A stretch of 63,425 nt of DNA, filler included, from Blastocystis sp. subtype 4 (Eukaryota), in the NCBI RefSeq assembly GCF_000743755.1. It is 32 parts of 32 records of this genome, joined end to end, with 100 filler letters (N's around TTAATTAATTAA, not from the genome) between each part and the next. Parts side by side here need not be neighbours in the genome. Positions count along the whole stretch, not along the records: positions 34,646 to 37,941 come from NW_014568787.1; 31 more parts are not named here. One strand, 5' to 3'. The notes under the pieces were generated by a model. It was given only the letters and a program-made list of their open reading frames with translations. It was not told the origin of the DNA and did no database searches. Both the position numbers and the translations under genes were made by a program. Within the stretch, counting starts at the first letter, position 1. Every line of letters begins with the position of its first letter. This document shows, piece after piece, positions 1 to 48,254 of the stretch.

Positions 1-184
1 GTTTGATCAAATAAAAGTGCCTGTCACTATTCTGCAAGACCCTAAGATCGTCATCTTAGATCTCGACAAGCTATCTTCATTCTACTAAGGTCCTGACAAC
101 GCTTCAGCTTTACATCACCTACAACATTGTCAGTGGTGGTACCTTTCCAGTTATTCCATAGTTGCTTTTTTGTTTGTTTTTTAT

Positions 185-367
185 ATGGATTACTGGATAA
201 CCGACCTCATCATCGATATGAAGACGTACCGTTCGCAGGACCTAAGTCCTCTCGAGCAAGCTTACTCTATCTCTCACCCATCAATTTCGCATATAAGATA
301 TTGGCGCCTTATATCCCATGAGAAATCTCTGAATGAGAACTTGATCAAGCAAATTCAAATACGCTAA
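185..367 (+). CDS. Small intronless hypothetical protein (putative viral-element ORF)
   Basis: ATG-initiated 60-aa ORF in a contig of compact intronless ORFs; no family recognised. Confidence 0.35.
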   Translation: MDYWITDLIIDMKTYRSQDLSPLEQAYSISHPSISHIRYWRLISHEKSLNENLIKQIQIR

Positions 368-536
368 CTTCTATATAAACACCATCATAATTATCAAACT
401 TTTTCATTATGGGTTCATTACAATTTGTTTTTCTCAATTTGATCTTTGATCAAATGTTTGCTCTGCAAATCTCCATCTAAACCTGTTTATTTTACTAGAA
501 ACATGTTATGATCCTTTTGTTTTGTAAAAGTAAGGT

Positions 537-598
537 ATTTTTCCTCCATATAGTAAAGATGAATGCAATTTTTCCTCCATATAGTAAAGATGAATGCA
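537..598 (+). repeat. Exact 31-bp tandem duplication spanning an ORF start
   Basis: ATTTTTCCTCCATATAGTAAAGATGAATGCA occurs twice (537-567, 568-598). Confidence 0.9.
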
Positions 599-826
599 AT
601 TGGTGCAATCCCTATTGAGAATCGTTTCACATTGGAATCCGATATGGTCAATTACCTTAATCAGCATGATGGTTATTTCCGCGTGTATCGATATTTCACA
701 ACCAAAGTAAATGATGAAGCTATAACATTCCTCAAGAAAAGCAATTTGGTGACAGATATTGTCCATACAATCAGCCTACAACAAATGGATGGATATGTAA
801 AACACTATTTGATTGAGCGGTTGTAG
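590..826 (+). CDS. Small intronless hypothetical protein (putative viral-element ORF)
   Basis: ORF MNAIGAIPIENRF... preceded by TAGTAAAG-ATG, resembling other element start contexts. Confidence 0.4.
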   Translation: MNAIGAIPIENRFTLESDMVNYLNQHDGYFRVYRYFTTKVNDEAITFLKKSNLVTDIVHTISLQQMDGYVKHYLIERL

Positions 827-897
827 TTAATTCATCATCAAGCCATTTTATTGGTTCAGGTTATTTTCACTTTGACCATACAAAGTGAATATGCTGT

Positions 898-1898
898 TTA
901 ATCTACGATTAAACTGAATAATGCCTTGTTTAAACTTCCTGTACAACAAGATAACAAGGTACAAATCTTTTGAGTACTTTTGAGTACTATCCCAATATCC
1001 GATGAAAGGGTTATTGAGAAGGATACATATGCATTTGTGGGTTTGAAAATGGTATCAAATGTCAATCTAACTGCTTCATCTTGAAGTGTTTGTGTAACAG
1101 TGAATACATCAGTTCCTGACAGTGTTAATGTGTATTGAGCATTTTCAGTCACAGCAGTATCCTGTAGATAGCCATTCAGATGGAAAGTGAGTCTATAGGT
1201 CTTTCCAATGGTGACAGTAGGGATTTGAGTTGGATTGATACTAGTGAATACTCCATAATTATCACTTGTTATGTTGATTGGTTTGTGAATATGTTTGAAT
1301 CACTTTGCACTTGCATTTCTACACAGAATGCCTGTTTCGCAGCATCTTGATGTTCAGACCATGTGTATGTGCCATTATTGTTGTTAAGGAGATAGTTTCC
1401 ATTGGTTGGAGGAAGAATGATACTTCTTGCACTTCCTTGATTGTATGTAACGATTTGATTCTTGGATGAATCTAAGTTCCAACAATGACGCATGATATTA
1501 TTTGCATTCATTGATACCCAATTCCATCCTTGTGAATCTTTCTGTAAATACCAAGAACCAGTTCCTGGGAGTTTCATTGAAGAAACAGATGTTCCATTCC
1601 AAAGAGGAAACACTGGTTGATTTGTTGTACCGTCTATTGAGAATATATCAGTGAATATATTGTCAGAAGTTAGCTTTGTGAATGTGTTGTTAGTACTAAC
1701 ATTGAGAATATAGATGCCTTTTGTAGAAGGGAGATTGATAGGTGAGAAAGTGGTATCGGATGTGAAATAAGGAATGGTACCAGATGAAGTAACAGTAATG
1801 GGATTGCCTGTAGCTGTGCGAAAGAATGATGAATCGATATGATCAATTCCAGCAGCAGCTGCATCTGCTTGTACAAGGGAATATCCAGATCCATCATA
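898..1898 (-). pseudogene. Fibre/spike-like T/S/N/G-rich protein, 5'-truncated, one frameshift near 1290
   Basis: Open frame from contig edge (YDGSGYSLVQADAAAAG...VFPLWNGTSVSS...LPPTNGNYLLNNNNGTYTW) continues after a frameshift as KPINITSDNYGVF...TENAQYTLTLSG; no introns. Fibre-like call rests on composition only. Confidence 0.45.
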
Positions 1899-1899
1899 G

Positions 1900-1999: not shown

Positions 2000-2354
2000 A
2001 ATGAAGATTTGAAGAATGTAATCAACACTACTCGAGATGTTGCTAGTAATCTGAAGAATGAAGCGATTGATCAAGTGAATGGTAGAGGAAGTGTATTTAG
2101 AGGTGGATCTGTTGTTTCAAGTGTAGAATGTGGAGGCGGATTGCATGTAAGAAGAAGTAATATCGATGATGAGGTAGATGATTATGATATGATGAGTGTT
2201 GGTGTGAAAGTATATGATGATAGTGTTACAAATGATCCAGTAGAAGAAACAGAGAATAANATACAAATCATTGAATGGTGTAGGAGGATTTCGAACTCAA
2301 GCAGTTAGTTGTGGTAAGTTGCGTGCTGTTAGAACAAAGAGATTGGCATTGTAA
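2000..2354 (+). CDS. C-terminal part of an intronless protein with GRG/GGS/GGG motifs and a basic tail (possible capsid or core protein tail)
   Basis: ORF 2009-2308; an ambiguous base at 2260 may hide an indel giving ...YKSLNGVGGFRTQAVSCGKLRAVRTKRLAL*. Confidence 0.35.
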
Positions 2355-2569: not shown

Positions 2570-3270
2570 TATTCACTTTGGTTGATTCACTTTGTGAAAA
2601 TGCAAAATCTATGATTTTGGTGTAGTAGGGTGTAGTAGGTAGTGTAGTAGCTTACAAAGAAGTAGGCTACTACACTAAAAAGCCCATAAACTGGCTCATT
2701 TATGGGGATATTCTTTTTATTTATGAGGGTTTAACTGACTTATTTATGAAGGTGTAGTAGGTGTAGTAGGTGTAGTAGCCTGTTTTTCAATTCGCCAAAA
2801 CTTTTTGGAGGCTACTACACTACTACACTACTACATCCTCATAACAAGTCAGTAAAACCCTCATAACAAGTCAGTAAAACCCTCATAACAATAATCAAAT
2901 CCTCATAAATGAGCCATTTTATGAGGGATTAAGTGTAGTAGCCTACTTCTTTGTAAGACACTTCACTTTTCACAATAATCACAAAATCTCATTATTGATG
3001 ATAAAATAAAATCTTCTTGATAATAATCATGATTATGTTTATTCACTTTGATTGATTCACAAAATAGTGAATGAAAATCTATGATTTGGTGTAGTAGGGT
3101 GTAGTAGGTAGTGTAGTAGGTTACAAAGAAGTAGACTACTACACTTAAACCCTCATAAACTGGCTCATTTATGGGATATTCTTTTTATTTATAAGGGTTT
3201 AAGTGACTTATTTATGAGGGTGTAGTAGGTGTAGTAGCCTGTTTTTCAATTTTGCAAAGATTTTTGGTAG
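2570..3270. repeat. TGTAGTAG-rich direct/inverted repeat array (A - inverted A' - A)
   Basis: Perfect 26-bp inverted repeat 2651-2676 / 2932-2957; unit ~2570-2810 repeated directly at ~3040-3265; related copy at 48049-48232. Confidence 0.9.
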
Positions 3271-3680
3271 AATTAAGTAGTAGTGTTTTGACGCATGTTA
3301 CATATTTTTATTATCCAGACAAACCGTCGCAAACATGGGCCTCCAACCCTGGGTAGCTATACAGGGTTAACCCTACCAGACAAAATCGCCACGAAAATGC
3401 AGACAAAAAGGCCCATAAACAAGCTCGAAAAGGCAGACATTTTGATCATAATTTGGAAACATATCCAACCCATTTCAAGTCAAATCATGGGCAACAATCA
3501 AGCACAAAATAATTGACACACGTTAACAATGGCTTACAATGGTCAGCAACCCTACCAGCAATATGGGACAATAATTTTGCCGTTGATTTACCTTACATTA
3601 TTAACAATGGTCAACAATGGCTAACAGTGACAGACAAAGTGAAGAACATATATTTTGTTGTTAATTCTTTCTAGCAATAA

Positions 3681-3908
3681 ATGCATTATTCAATAATCAT
3701 TCAAGGTAAACCATCAAATGGATCATTCACATGGGATAATCCTTACCGTTTTAAAAATCCATACATTACTATGATGAAGGTACTATTAACGCCTACTTCT
3801 ACCGCACTATTTTCAAACATTGATCAAACCAATACTGTATCTAATGGTAAAGGAGAATCTGTAGTATTTGAGAAAGGATATTATACTCTAGCTGAGATAA
3901 TCGCTATC
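3681..3908 (+). CDS. N-terminal part of penton (minor capsid)-like protein, 3'-truncated
   Basis: SFTWDNPYRF..MKVLL..FSNIDQTNT...VVFEKGYYTLAEII matches the N-terminal pattern of Polinton/adintovirus pentons; TAAATG start context. Confidence 0.55.
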
Positions 3909-34397: not shown

Positions 34398-34645
34398 CAT
34401 CTCAAGTCAATAATTATTTGATTCATTCAAAGTGTATTCTCCTGAGGAATACAATTCAAAAGCAGAGAAGATGAATGAACCAAAAGAAGCAGTTCTATTC
34501 ATAATCAAGAAGAATGCAAATGTTGGACACTTTGTTGGTGTGTTCNNNNNNNNNNNNNNNNNNNNNNNNNNNNNNNNNNNNNNNNNNNNTTAATTAATTA
34601 ANNNNNNNNNNNNNNNNNNNNNNNNNNNNNNNNNNNNNNNNNNNN

Positions 34646-34796
34646 CACAAACACGTAATGGAGGAGCATCTCTATTCAACTTACCATGTTCATACAATGC
34701 TTTGAATATCGATTCTTTGTTACGCAAAGGAAAGATCACAGATCTTCTATTCTTGTCTGAGAAATCGATTGGAGTTGCACTCAATTTGCTTTTCAT
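34646..34796 (-). CDS. Intronless hypothetical ORF start (putative element gene)
   Basis: MKSKLSATPIDF...; starts within the palindrome CATTTACTAAGTAAATG. Confidence 0.4.
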
Positions 34797-34807
34797 TTAC
34801 TAAGTAA

Positions 34808-35140
34808 ATGAACAAGTTGTTTGAGATACAAAACAAGTATGTGATGGATTGGCGAATTCCTGTCAATCTTCATATTATTGCCATAACAGTACTTACGAAA
34901 CGGATCAACAAATCGATTCNAATATGTTGTGATCAAGTTGAAAGATGTAAGGAACCAGCAAAGAAATCAGGATCATAAGCTATGTTCTCTTGTGTTGATT
35001 CTGGTATTCATCATCTACTCTCATTCACACAATGACTCTTTCAGAACGGTGTTTCATCCACATACTCGGTCACCATTAGGATGTAACTTATGAATGTGAA
35101 ATGGTGTCATTCTCAGGGAAACTTCGTGTTGCCAGGGTGT
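34808..35140 (+). pseudogene. Decayed small penton-like ORF
   Basis: MNKLFEIQNKYVMDWRIPVNLHIIAITV...I.ICCDQVE then frameshifts, ending ...EMVSFSGKLRV. Confidence 0.3.
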
Positions 35141-35345
35141 ATGGTTGATTTCATGAAGAAATCACCCTACTATTCTCCAACAGGAATAGTGGTTGGGTTC
35201 ATGAGCTGTCAAGCAATCACTCGAGACTTGGACACTCAGGAACTAGTCCAAGGCCTTATGGTATGGACGTTAATTGCCCTCTATGGCATCTATGTAGTGT
35301 TTATCAACAACCCTTGTTTTCATTACTAACAAACATTTCCATCAC

Positions 35346-37013
35346 TTCTTTCGTAGATAATAACTCCACTGTCGAATGAATCGATCAAGAGAATAAGAAT
35401 CTTAATCAACATTAATGCTTTAATCATACTTGAACTATCCAATTTGTTCACTCTATTGAATGCGAGTTTCAACTGTATTCCTTGTTCAGTGAGTGCTGGA
35501 ATGTCTAATTTCAAATCAATAGTATATCATCACTCTCCAAAATCACTTTGCCTATGTACTTGAAATTCCCATAACCTTTGAATAGAGATAGGGAAGGAAT
35601 ATCTGATTAATCAATAATCAGTTTCATTCATACTCTTCATTATCAATCTATTCGATTTGATAGTATGTTCATCACTTTCAAGAGCATCTTTTCCAAGAGT
35701 GATGGTTTGAAGTCGAGTCAGATCTCTTTATCATTCATTCAATCATTCATACTATTGAATACTATCCATTTACAATTACAGAATGCACAACGATCTAATT
35801 GAATGGATATGAGAGAAGGAAGATTCTTACATTCAAATGATTTATACCAATAGAATGAATCCTCTCCAAAATGGATTTCTCTTAACTGATCACAATTCAT
35901 TATCAAACATTTGCTTCCTATCCAATTCTTAAAGTCTAATGAAAAACTCATATATCCAATGGTCATACTCTTCAATTCATTCAATCCATCAATTACAAAC
36001 TGTTTCACTTCATCAAAACAATTATCTCCAATCTCCAATCTCTCAACTCCTTTCAAGCAGTCAGTATTAAATACACTCAAATTATATCCATAACCATTTC
36101 TAAACCTTTTCATGCTTCCCGCATACTTACCTTTCATCCATATTCCACTTCTCACTACTTCTCCATTCTCATTCAATTCTTCTCCAGCTCCATCTCTCAA
36201 TCCATTCTTCCATTCTCCAATATACACTGGATTCATTTCTTTGAATTCACTTCCATATCCATCTCTCTTTCCATTCTTCCATCCACCGTAGTACAAAACA
36301 TCCTCTCCATCAATTCCATACTCACTTCCTTCTCCTTCTCGAATGAATCCTTTCATCATATCTCCTTCAAGTCCTCCTTCATATACTCTCATTCCATTAT
36401 CATCATATTCTATCATCAAATCTCCTTTCCATTCTCTCAATACTCTCATCATTACTCCATTCTTGTATTCACATTCTCTAACCAANCTTCCTCCTTCATA
36501 CTCAAAACACTTACCATTCTTTCTCCATTCATTATCATATTCACTCACACTCAACAAATCTCTATTCTCATTTATCTCTGAATAGAATCCTTTCATTCCT
36601 TCTCGTTCCTTCAATTTCGAAACTCGCTTTCCATTTCGATACAATCCTCTCCATATCTCATTTCCATCATCATCATATTCTATCCACATTCCAACTTCCT
36701 TTCCTTTTGATACTCTTCCTTTCAATACTGTTCTACCATACTTATTCCTCTTTATCACTTCTCCTTCACATTCATCATTCACAAACATCATTATCATAAA
36801 CACTGTTCCATTCTCTCTCACAATCAATCCAATTCCTTCTTTCTTTCCTTCTTTCATTTCTACTCTCATTCTGTATCCATTATCATCTATCATTAATCTC
36901 ATTATTGCTTCTCCATTCAATTCATCACCATTCTTCATTTCAACACTCTCAATTTCATAATCACCAAGGAATTCAAGACATGAACTACAATTCCTAACAT
37001 TGATGTTGCTCAT
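35346..37013 (-). CDS. MORN-like plus LRR repeat protein, spliced
   Basis: YYGGWKNGKRDGYG, YIGEWKNGLRDG, IGDNCF..IDGLNELKS. Confidence 0.8.
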
Positions 37014-37439
37014 ATCAGTCTAAGAATCAATGTTGTTTACATATTAATGAAAGCATAGTCAATATCAATACTAATTCTGTCATCATTCATGCGACAATTC
37101 GGATCCCCAAATACGCCATTCCACATTAGCCCATTTCATTCATTTCAATCCACATTCACTTTCATTCATATCTCACTATTCTACTATATTCTACTATCAT
37201 CTCTTCATTCCTATTCAATATTACTGAATACAATCACGGGAATATCATTATCATCATTCATTACTCATATCATTCATTTCTTATTTCCATTTATATCTAC
37301 ACTCTCATATCATATCAATTCTATTCATATCTCACAATTCATGTCAATCACTTTCTCACTTATTTCCAATCACATCAATTTGTTATCATTTCATTAATTC
37401 TCATCCATTTATTTCTTCATCACTAATTCTTTCATATGA

Positions 37440-37941
37440 TTGTTGTTGATTGTAGTATCAATCATCTCATTCTATTCTTTACATTCTGTTTCATTCTTCA
37501 TTCTACTCTCATTTCTAGTTATCCTTTCTTACTCTATTCAATGTTCATCTAATCAAGATTATGTTAAGATCACTAAGAAAACTGGTAATTATCCTAGTCA
37601 AGAGTCATTTGAGATTGTATCTGGATCATCTACTCTATTCACTTCTCCTTCATGTGTTTATAGTAATCAACAATATGTGTATGAAGTCTGTTTGAATGCT
37701 TCTTCTAATCATATCTACACTCTTATCATGAAAGATTCAGCTAGTGGGGGATGGTGGTATGATGGATTTATCTCAATGAATGATATCAATGATAATACTA
37801 TCTTCAAGAACATCATGAGAGAGGGTGTTAGTGAAGAGAGTAATCAATTTGCTCTCTATTCTCCTATCAATAAGAATGATACTTGGAGATACAGTGATAG
37901 TTATCATTCTCTTTGGAATACCAATTCATTCAATGATAATC
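37440..37941 (+). CDS. Ig-like surface protein family, N-terminal fragment
   Basis: Close paralog of 6790-7250 (CSSNQDYVKITK, ESFEIVSGSS). Confidence 0.7.
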
Positions 37942-38041: not shown

Positions 38042-39274
38042 ACAGTTCCTGCAGGAACTCAATTCACATTCATCAGACAAGAAGAAGAAGAATCAGGTGT
38101 TGAACCACATGTGTTTACCTTAACTCAAAGTTCTACGTGTACAAATGGTGGAGCTTCCTCTGGATTACTTAGTCAAATCAGAGGGTTGATTGGTAGTTAC
38201 TATAATAACATTGGTGGTGATTTTGCATTCACTTCATTTCTGATTTATGGTAAAGCTCATTGTTCATCTATTCGAGCTGGAGGATCTTATGGTGTTTTCA
38301 AGTTTGGAAGAGCAGGAGAAGGAAGTCCTGAATTGTTGGATTATGTAACACTACCAGAAACATTCCTTTCTTCAGAATGGTATGTATTCAACAAAGTGAA
38401 TCCCACATTCACACTTCCTAAAGGATACTATACTCAAGAAGAGGAATGTTCATATGTCAAATCAAGTGTTGAATCTTTGAATGTGTGGGGTACAGTGATT
38501 AATAAACCATGTTGGAGTACTGTATTAGAAAGAAGGATTCAAAGGAATACAGGTGCTACATGCTGTTCATTGACATCTCATAATCCATTGTGGTTAGTGT
38601 ATGAAGTTAACAATCAAATATTCAATACTGGATTATATACAAGTCTAAATCTTCATTTCATAGATCCAAATGAAGATATCAAGATGAATGTTAATCAACT
38701 TGAATACACAGGACCAGATGGGACATCTTGGATGGTTGGATTCACATCTCAACCTACTACACAAGAAGATTGTGTTGAACAGATGAATGCGATGTTTGCA
38801 AGCAAGGGATTAGCGATCTCATGGAAGAAACAAGAAACATGTTACTCAATTGTAGCTGATGAACCATTCAAACTTGGTGGATCATTCTTCTCAAATAGTC
38901 TATTGAAATCAATCAAACCAGGACATAACCAGACATCCCAAGTATGGACATGGAATTACTACAATGATGCTGTTTATGAGATTAGTGGATATGAAACCAT
39001 TATGTCAAAGAAGGTTATCAACATCACAAATAGTAAGGAAGTGGCAAAGGTGTATTGTGATCTTGTGAAGAGTTATCATAGTTGTGATTGTTTGTTGACA
39101 AATCTTCATATTGTGGATTTGAAGAAGAACTACAGTTCATCACTGGAGTTGATTCCTATCAAAACATCCTTCAGAACAATCTCTGTAAAGGTAAGAGATC
39201 TAGATGATAAGGATTATTCATTTGCAGGAACCATCTATTTGAACATGTTGATATCATCTCTTCAACAGGATTGA
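38042..39274 (+). CDS. Large intronless penton (minor capsid)-like protein with insertion domain, 5'-truncated
   Basis: FTLPKGYYT and C-terminal INIT..KVYCDLV..LLTNL..IPIK..RTISVKVRDLDDKDYSFAGTIYLNMLI, the pattern of Polinton/adintovirus pentons. Confidence 0.65.
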   Translation, partial: TVPAGTQFTFIRQEEEESGVEPHVFTLTQSSTCTNGGASSGLLSQIRGLIGSYYNNIGGDFAFTSFLIYGKAHCSSIRAGGSYGVFKFGRAGEGSPELLDYVTLPETFLSSEWYVFNKVNPTFTLPKGYYTQEEECSYVKSSVESLNVWGTVINKPCWSTVLERRIQRNTGATCCSLTSHNPLWLVYEVNNQIFNTGLYTSLNLHFIDPNEDIKMNVNQLEYTGPDGTSWMVGFTSQPTTQEDCVEQMNAMFASKGLAISWKKQETCYSIVADEPFKLGGSFFSNSLLKSIKPGHNQTSQVWTWNYYNDAVYEISGYETIMSKKVINITNSKEVAKVYCDLVKSYHSCDCLLTNLHIVDLKKNYSSSLELIPIKTSFRTISVKVRDLDDKDYSFAGTIYLNMLISSLQQD

Positions 39275-39370
39275 AGCTTTGCTAATTCATTTTACTACAA
39301 GAACATAATGTTCTTCTTTTCTACGTAGTAGAAATTAGCTTTGCTAATTCATTTTACTTGTAGTAAAATG
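39275..39370. promoter_or_regulatory. Intergenic direct and inverted repeats ending at an ATG
   Basis: 22-bp direct repeat 39275-39296/39337-39358; CATTTTACTACAA (39288-39300) is the reverse complement of TTGTAGTAAAATG (39358-39370). Confidence 0.6.
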
Positions 39371-39851
39371 CTATTCAGTACAAACAATGATAAAGCAATA
39401 TCAATCAATGATCCAGAAGCTGTGTATAAGAAGATTTCAGATCCAAGTTGGAAGGCACTATTCAACACAATTCAATCGAATGGTTGGCTGGGCAAACTGA
39501 TTTCTTCTATGATCATGCGATAGATAGTGATGTGATTGTAGCTGTTCAACAACCTGTTAACAATGCCAAAGTGGTTGGTATACTGGAAGGATATACAGCG
39601 ACAAATCACACATTTTCAGATAGAGACAATGATCTGAAAGATGATAATGGATTTGTGCATGAAAGTGAAGCATTAATCCAGTGTCTAACAGAGAACAATC
39701 TACTTGATCAACAACTCCAAGTGTTCCACAAAGTGAATAAGGATCATCCACATCGAATTGTATGGTCTAATGATCAGATAACTGAGAAGATATTCTATGC
39801 ATCTGATTATCACTTCAAGGAATGTTATTATGTCATTGTGAATGATACTCA
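39368..39851 (+). pseudogene. Intronless hypothetical element gene, one frameshift, 3'-truncated
   Basis: MLFSTNNDK... shifts near 39490 into TDFFYDHAIDSDVIV... Confidence 0.45.
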
Positions 39852-48012: not shown

Positions 48013-48048
48013 TCAGTGATTCAAGTGTGTAAGATAGATAATCCACTT

Positions 48049-48232
48049 AGTGTAGTAGCTTACAAAGAAACAGGCTACTACACTAAAAGGCCATAAACTG
48101 GTTCATAAAGATTTGATTATGATTATAAGGGTTTACTGACTATATTATTTATGGAGTGGTAGCCTGTTTTTCATTCATTCAAAGTGTTTGTTGGAATTTC
48201 GGATAAGCTATTGTTTTGGAGGCTACTACACT
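48049..48232. repeat. TGTAGTAG palindromic repeat unit, second copy
   Basis: AGTGTAGTAGCTTACAAAGAA..GGCTACTACACT matches 2641-2676; unit bounded by AGTGTAGTAGC/GCTACTACACT. Confidence 0.85.
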
Positions 48233-48254
48233 GCAACAATCAACACAAGTCTAT

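Follow-up and report, generated by a model that had tools for sequence, protein, structure and literature searches.

A palindrome that joins two divergent open reading frames (ORFs) lies 148 nt inside the contig 34646-37941, counted from the contig start, of the window, by which we mean the whole stretch of 63,425 nucleotides analysed here. As the earlier note had described, the palindrome includes the 17-bp sequence CATTTACTAAGTAAATG at 34794-34810, and the two ORFs face away from each other with their ATGs 11 bp apart, at 34796 (minus strand) and 34808 (plus strand), each directly preceded by AGTAA. The perfect inverted repeat was found to extend beyond the 17-mer to 21 bp (Table 1). When the 21-bp repeat was folded as DNA, its energy was −5.3 kcal/mol, and none of 200 shuffles folded equally well. 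In the window there were 15 distinct palindromes with 8-bp arms and a loop of ≤3. Markov simulations gave 7.3-7.8 (sd ~2.5), and 97.5-100% of them contained one or more palindromes with 8-bp arms and a loop of ≤1. The sequence TAAATG occurs 43 times in the window. The palindrome pattern is not remarkable by itself; two findings go beyond chance, namely that related loci keep the spacer and that AGTAA is over-represented where element genes start.

Table 1. Features of the palindrome locus and of the sites compared with it (window positions, unless a locus is named)
Feature	Position	Strand	Remark
21-bp perfect inverted repeat over both start codons	34792..34812	.	10-bp arms, one centre base (34802)
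AGTAA directly before ATG of protease gene	34797..34801	-	from sequence; enriched at element starts
AGTAA directly before ATG of 124-aa gene	34803..34807	+	from sequence; enriched at element starts
Putative clan-CE (adenain/Ulp1/S273R-like) cysteine protease gene, 5' 50 codons	34647..34796	-	open at contig end
Predicted 124-aa beta-sandwich gene, 5' 56 codons	34808..34978	+	stop (codon 57) at junction
Junction, element DNA / repeated host-type sequence	34976..34980	.	window element copy ends here
Second, separate protease-gene fragment, middle part to catalytic-His motif	34416..34545	+	end of preceding contig
Artificial linker	34546..34645	.	joins two contigs; non-biological
TAAATG start preceded by AATAA (not AGTAA), 76-codon ORF	3678..3908	+	open at contig end
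Second dyad, 9-bp arms, 3-nt loop	39350..39370	.	ends in ATG of 51-codon ORF
AGTAAAGATG twice in 31-nt tandem duplication	552..592	+	second copy opens 78-codon ORF
Inverted-repeat inserts	2620-2809, 3089-3275, 48047-48238; L006 8349-8575, 12597-12824; L003 3027-3343		

The window comprises 32 contigs of 1.7-3.3 kb each, joined by 31 artificial linkers, and contains 60,325 bases without the linkers. It consists of AT-rich eukaryotic DNA in which actin, MORN and LRR genes are present. The octamer TGTTTGTT was found in 25 copies in the 60,325 bases (one per 2.4 kb), a density close to the spacing reported for Blastocystis (one per 2.75-3.1 kb) and far from that of the other stramenopiles described in the same source (PMC5608401). 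Related DNA was found in human gut assemblies and in rodent gut runs. On these grounds the host is likely to be Blastocystis.

The minus-strand ORF shares 98% identity with the N-terminal part of a protein of 169 aa (P0016). Of 7 candidates, 4 proved to be relatives, belonging to clusters of up to 145 members, and a wider search gave 22 relatives. In the alignment of the protease family (21 sequences), the His, Asp, Gln and Cys motifs were conserved, and the family profile matched ASFV S273R with an E-value of 8.7e-6. The structural model (pLDDT 80.8) gave Ulp1, I7L, S273R and adenain as fold matches. Profile and model together identify the product of the minus-strand gene as a clan-CE protease, of the type that acts in virion maturation. 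The second protease-gene fragment (34416..34545) was 98.5% identical to L003 2336-2465. At the N-terminus of the protease (window 34740-34790 compared with L002-L014), two separate in-frame 30-nt indels were seen among the copies.

The plus-strand ORF was 96% identical to the first 56 aa of a 124-aa protein (P0003), for which a model with eight beta strands was obtained (pLDDT 71). The fold matches of this model were generic: the best had a Z score of 8.0 (rmsd 2.8, 99 aligned) and was a non-viral domain, and capsid chains reached 6.7. Its language-model (Atlas) neighbours were viral, and V18-19 was found on 19% of the members of one cluster. The 124-aa protein is predicted to be a single jelly-roll, minor-capsid-like protein. 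Between L003 and L008, the differences in the gene fell at codon positions 1, 2 and 3 in the numbers 5, 6 and 19, respectively, as expected for a real gene. No match of either focal protein to Pfam or PHROGs was detected. Judged from their homologs, both window ORFs are 5' pieces of real genes. A further truncation of the 124-aa gene, ~220 nt past its start, is shared by six loci (L009-L014), and the gene has therefore been broken at at least two independent sites. The possibility that the plus frame, read across three stops, is one decayed gene was rejected, because its homologs show an element part followed by an unrelated host repeat.

A metagenome scan gave 15 related loci, in which a dense cluster of intronless genes encodes an rve integrase, a KilA-N protein and a 400-aa major-capsid-like protein; the element is Polinton-like (MELD-type). 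The integrase gene is located at L006 8622-9626 and matches Pfam rve with an E-value of 1e-9 and a score of 39 bits, the cut-off being 32.6. The KilA-N protein is encoded at L003 5269-6222 and L006 10489-11484 (Pfam E 1.7e-7); an egovirus preprint, in the part available, describes KilA as apparently restricted to the polintons of Parabasalia. The 400-aa ORF scored 0.97 to viral clusters, some of which carry Capsid_N or Capsid_NCLDV on 11-17% of their members, and had no relevant match in Pfam. Neither pPolB nor a packaging ATPase was present among the 16 ORFs scanned, all loci being partial, and a Walker A motif was not found in the partial loci L002, L003 and L006. No locus contains both element termini, and the junctions seen are internal truncations. 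The junctions at L003 position 1105 were considered as an element end and rejected, since the ORF continues in other loci and the site is a truncation. Scans of viral contigs with the 124-aa gene, the capsid-like gene, the palindrome, the protease alignment, ORF 38042, the integrase and KilA-N gave no relative. Two bacterial matches from the genome-contig scan (L016 and L017) had no tblastn match to either gene and were taken as chance.

The window copy is a truncated element fragment. The blastn match of the window to L003 stops at 34982. The junction was crossed, with 0-1 differences, by contigs of X1, X2 and X6, which come from three studies; the truncation is therefore genuine rather than an error of assembly. 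In X1, X6 and X19 there are also contigs that run on as intact element past the junction position (runs X19 and X20 are possibly DNA). None of the raw reads of run X21 matched.

Enrichment of the motif was examined by comparing element starts with host starts. The host controls were taken from the window and the locus flanks only (66-70 kb), window contigs 1, 2000 and 38042 being excluded from the host set in all tests, and the first ATGs of ORFs, rather than annotated starts, served as host starts; many of these first ATGs are not true starts, because the genome is intron-rich. In the first set, drawn from three loci, AGTAA was located ≤6 nt before the ATG at 10 of the 15 element starts and at 1 of 52 host ORF starts, the latter lying in a bacterial-looking stretch of L015. 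Among all host ATGs the count was 16 of 3532, and among ATGs inside element genes it was 5 of 585. The strict set was restricted to one copy and to first-ATG ORFs, with the two focal genes removed, and omitted the L015 flank as well as two window contigs that contain parts of the element (47398 and 58194). In this set, 6 of 10 genes carried AGTAA within 6 nt, compared with 0 of 85 host ORFs (p 2.4e-7). The word was likewise present at 15 of 3326 host ATGs and, among bacterial ORFs, at 2 of 24. AGTAA was also the top 5-mer in an unbiased ranking of the strict set, and none of 5000 column shuffles reached 6. AGTAA-ATG sites showed no excess in host DNA (17 observed, 23.1 expected), and AGTAA was absent from three host starts read by eye (actin, ADP-ribosylglycohydrolase and Mo25-like). 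The 6-nt gap limit and the 6-bp stem threshold used below were chosen after the data had been seen, and the strict test tabulates gaps of 0-9; the word AGTAA itself was not fitted to the element genes, because it had been named before those genes were examined. The 313/440-aa gene was represented in the first, dyad and gene-class sets by its L006 start, where the motif is present, and in the strict set by its L003 first ATG, which has no AGTAA within 6 nt. The interpretation in the earlier note is supported in part: an excess of AGTAA is seen where element genes start but not where host ORFs do, and each ORF of the pair belongs to a conserved gene of the element, so that neither of the two outcomes named there as refuting it was observed.

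The enriched word is AGTAA(A), at a variable distance of 0-4 nt from the ATG; AGTAA was lacking at 5 of the 15 element starts. AGTAAA occurred at 9 of the 15, including those of the protease, jelly-roll, major-capsid-like and Gly-Gly-motif protein genes, and is lacking at the starts of the integrase gene, the KilA-N gene and four genes of unknown function. This split fits a late, or virion, gene class among the few genes with assigned roles. The sequence between −25 and −11 was 55% T in the 10 element starts and 34% T in the 85 host ORFs, a difference in composition only, and purines made up 74% of positions −10 to −1 at element starts compared with 47% in host ORFs. The likely actin start (window ~52390, minus strand) is preceded by TTCTTAAGAGA, which is T-rich and then purine-rich, without AGTAA; host starts may share the general composition of element starts. 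Two copies of AGTAAA(A)TG lie at L003 7296-7348, in the convergent spacer that follows the 3' end of the capsid-like gene and holds no called gene. In the accessible parts of the literature on Blastocystis Polintons, endogenous viruses and promoters, on Polinton promoter motifs and on bidirectional TAAATG, the motif is not described.

Perfect stems of at least 6 bp ending at the ATG were observed at 9 of the 15 element starts, as against 5 of the 52 host ORFs; without the focal pair, the count was 7 of 13, and in the strict set it was 4 of 10 compared with 7 of 85 host ORFs. A 6-bp stem was missing at 6 of the 15 element starts. The stems differ in sequence, and pairing is kept at several genes. 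With the upstream halves swapped between genes, stems were present at 15-25% instead of 54% (permutation p 0.0004-0.019). Composition nevertheless accounts for some of the hairpin signal, because swapped halves still pair at 15-25% compared with 2.7% for host ATGs. Folding energy separated element from host ORF starts weakly (p 0.058). In addition, the capsid-like 400-aa gene and its divergent neighbour have a common 12-bp palindrome, TTACTATAGTAA, in a 25-nt spacer. Since unidirectional genes carry similar hairpins, the dyad is more than two motifs placed back to back, and the hairpins at other element starts, together with this second divergent pair, indicate that the focal palindrome is the tightest case of a general layout.

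The exact palindrome spacer was kept in 13 of the 14 related loci that cover the start (L015 starts inside the gene and is not among the 14). In the resulting 14 copies, that is, the 13 loci and the window, only the centre base varies, being A in 11 and T in 3. These copies are 93-99.7% alike with common junctions and represent few independent events, and, given that 165 nt of coding DNA contain 6 polymorphic sites, the lack of variation in the arms does not reach significance. Conservation of the spacer is therefore weak evidence of selection, because the copies are closely related. In L008, the most divergent copy, both genes are kept and are separated by a 64-bp spacer with a signal and a hairpin of its own at each start; the jelly-roll gene there has AATAA instead of AGTAA. 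The back-to-back form is accordingly not required.

Three further contexts, at 39362-39370, 583-592 and 3678-3683, had been listed in the earlier note as related. Their coordinates are correct, and the site at 3678 belongs to the element family: its contig (2000-3908) was 96.5% identical to L014 over 547 nt. The contigs holding 39350..39370 and 552..592 had no blastn or tblastx match to the 17 loci, and the link of the 39362 and 583 sites to the element is for this reason unproven. Position 39362 is the 3' arm of the second dyad, whose opposite-strand ATG opens only M-N-stop. In the surrounding intergenic region (39270-39380), a 22-nt unit is duplicated and several hairpins lie side by side (z −4.5); the region follows an intronless 410-codon ORF without a family match; it may belong to a second element family. 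Window 1-1899 contains intronless ORFs that matched neither Pfam, PHROGs nor the loci, with the 31-nt tandem duplication lying over a start codon, and these ORFs may be viral.

We consider it likely that the motif is the element's own start signal, which is common here to two genes. The palindrome takes up the whole spacer of the divergent pair and would, on a modest balance of probability, be one shared copy of a start-proximal promoter or initiator of the element. The signal would be laid out as a T-rich arm, AGTAA(A), a gap of 0-4 nt and the ATG, and the motif of each strand would form the T-rich arm for the opposite strand, allowing one dyad to serve two genes. With 11 bp between the ATGs, transcripts would have to start inside the spacer or else overlap the partner gene, and the former is simpler. 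Transcription would begin in or beside the A-run, giving leaders of a few bases, and the signal would mark chiefly virion (late) genes. The reader would most likely be host RNA polymerase II acting on the integrated element, perhaps aided by an element-encoded DNA-binding protein, such as the KilA-N protein. Close variants of the Blastocystis poly(A) element, as given in PMC4159000, were found after 4 of 14 element stops (1.0 expected), and at two mismatches the count was 8 of 14 (5.3 expected; p 0.085, not significant). The integrase, the location in host DNA and the poly(A)-like elements after stops together make host polymerase II the likelier reader.

The motif could instead act in translation, as a start-codon context or a small RNA hairpin, with transcription starting elsewhere. 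Its distance of 0-4 nt from the ATG, the high purine content just upstream of element starts and the pairing kept at several genes in stems of varied sequence agree with such a role. Host ribosomes would read the motif, however, yet it shows no excess in host DNA, and leaders of the divergent pair long enough to form the hairpin would be antisense to the partner gene. We regard this role as fairly unlikely.

It is also unlikely, and a little more so, that the motif serves as a late initiator for the RNA polymerase of a large helper virus, either a relative of poxviruses or another. The earlier note had likened the site to the poxvirus late initiator TAAATG; the two focal starts do have the form TAAAT(G/A), but exact TAAATG was found at just 4 of the 15 element starts. 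TAAA is present at 9 of the 15, and in having a T-rich stretch and then TAAAN at the ATG the layout is similar to vaccinia late promoters as described in PMC5294985 and to the initiator, also TAAAN, of virus-like elements in yeast (PMC6211774). Promoters shared with a helper are documented, in the sources available in part, for virophages and for one Polinton-like virus, mavirus sharing the late motif of CroV. The available text of the egovirus preprint states that egoviruses, which are poxvirus relatives, co-occur with Blastocystis and proposes them as donors of KilA to parabasalid polintons, and the present element encodes KilA-N; the same text, on the other hand, reports no signal of gene flux between egoviruses and Blastocystis. 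No helper sequence was found in the DNA examined, and the weak poly(A) signals after element stops are of host type. The full proposal along these lines, a KilA-N Polinton-like virus with a poxvirus-style hairpin TAAA initiator, in which 11 bp drive two genes and are read by the polymerase of a poxvirus-related gut virus, is improbable.

Of about the same low probability is the view that AGTAA is functional and its symmetry a by-product, a 53-nt deletion having joined two motifs and template switching having perfected the repeat. The short spacer aligned to the L008 spacer with a 53-nt gap and small changes, the centre base is A or T, as inversion would give, and the mostly third-position differences between L008 and L003 in the 124-aa gene suggest that the long form is functional as well. 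Against this, dyads before unidirectional genes were commoner than in the swapped controls and L008 has one hairpin at each start, and a single outgroup does not give the direction of change. A very improbable alternative is that the hairpins direct 3'-end formation (polyadenylation) in the manner of the Mimivirus hairpin rule, or that the site is due to chance: the hairpin of tandem genes does also fall after the upstream stop, AGTAAA(A)TG does occur twice 3' of the capsid-like gene where no gene is called, and 8-bp-arm palindromes are common in the window, but no gene ends at the focal site or at the second divergent pair, the stems are 6-10 bp compared with the ≥13 bp quoted for mimivirus (PMC8557863), and the enrichment at starts has a p of ~1e-7.

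The start signal proposed here can be compared with those of known systems. A Blastocystis MELD virus has already been published (Starrett et al. 2021, PMC8502044); according to the available text, it resembles the present element in its inferred host, its integrase and virion genes that plain sequence search does not recognise, and differs in that PolB was not found in the partial loci here. The word 'promoter' is absent from the main text of that paper, and one of its supplementary files gave no match to 'Blastocystis' or to three peptides. Blastocystis genomes are listed among those screened in the supplement of PMC10120064. As in the Polintons/Mavericks described in PMC8097293, an rve integrase, a clan-CE protease and major-capsid-like and single jelly-roll proteins (predicted) are found together, the genes are intronless and many copies are degraded.

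Vaccinia late promoters (TAAAT(G/A)) and yeast-element initiators (TAAAN) share with the present starts a T-rich stretch followed by TAAA at or near the ATG (PMC5294985, PMC6211774); unlike these, the word here is AGTAA(A), with a gap of 0-4 nt and often a dyad. Vaccinia and the yeast elements are described as encoding their own cytoplasmic RNA polymerase, whereas none was seen in the present, partial element. The mavirus/EMALE motif TCTA and the PgVV motif AAAATTGA are, in the sections available, likewise short motifs, enriched ahead of most ORFs in integrated elements that resemble preplasmiviruses, and they differ between element types (PMC8547959, 10.1101/2022.07.28.501842). The present motif is distinguished from them by its sequence, its position abutting the ATG, its dyad form and its being common to divergent genes; in contrast to the virophage and PgVV systems, no matching giant virus is known for this element. 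The immediate-early motif of Medusavirus, which uses the host nucleus, is also palindromic and upstream, but is 24 bp long, lies 40-70 bp upstream and is early, compared with ~11 bp at the ATG of virion-type genes here (PMC8557863). The Mimivirus hairpin-rule terminator as given in the same source (a stem of ≥13 bp after the stop) does not correspond to a 10-bp stem between two start codons.

There are few systems in which it is established whether host polymerase or a helper virus switches on the virion genes of integrated Polinton-like elements. A transfection system exists for Blastocystis, with one working promoter as of 2019 according to the available part of PMC6395660, and an element-specific motif that abuts the ATG, with two genes served from 11 bp, would make the question of host or helper testable in this organism. 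The sequence comparisons support well a real, element-specific start motif, for which the mechanism is proposed; what is unusual here is the very compact two-way case, with 11 bp between start codons. The AGTAA motif could serve as a marker for true starts in divergent genomes and as a word to seek in large DNA viruses of the gut. If a helper did read it, a virophage-like partnership would exist in the human gut, and the motif would be a fingerprint for finding that helper.

A gene for a protein of ~430 aa with several Gly-Gly motifs is located downstream of the protease gene (L007 289-1575, minus strand; window 2000-2330). By the cleavage rule of such proteases, this may be a core protein that the protease cuts. 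At L015 800-1600, a ribulose-phosphate epimerase gene is joined to a truncated integrase; the stretch has a bacterial look, and the contig may be chimeric. Two families of non-coding inserts of 200-320 bp with inverted-repeat ends were found at several intergenic sites of the element in both orientations, and are possibly miniature mobile elements or fused termini.
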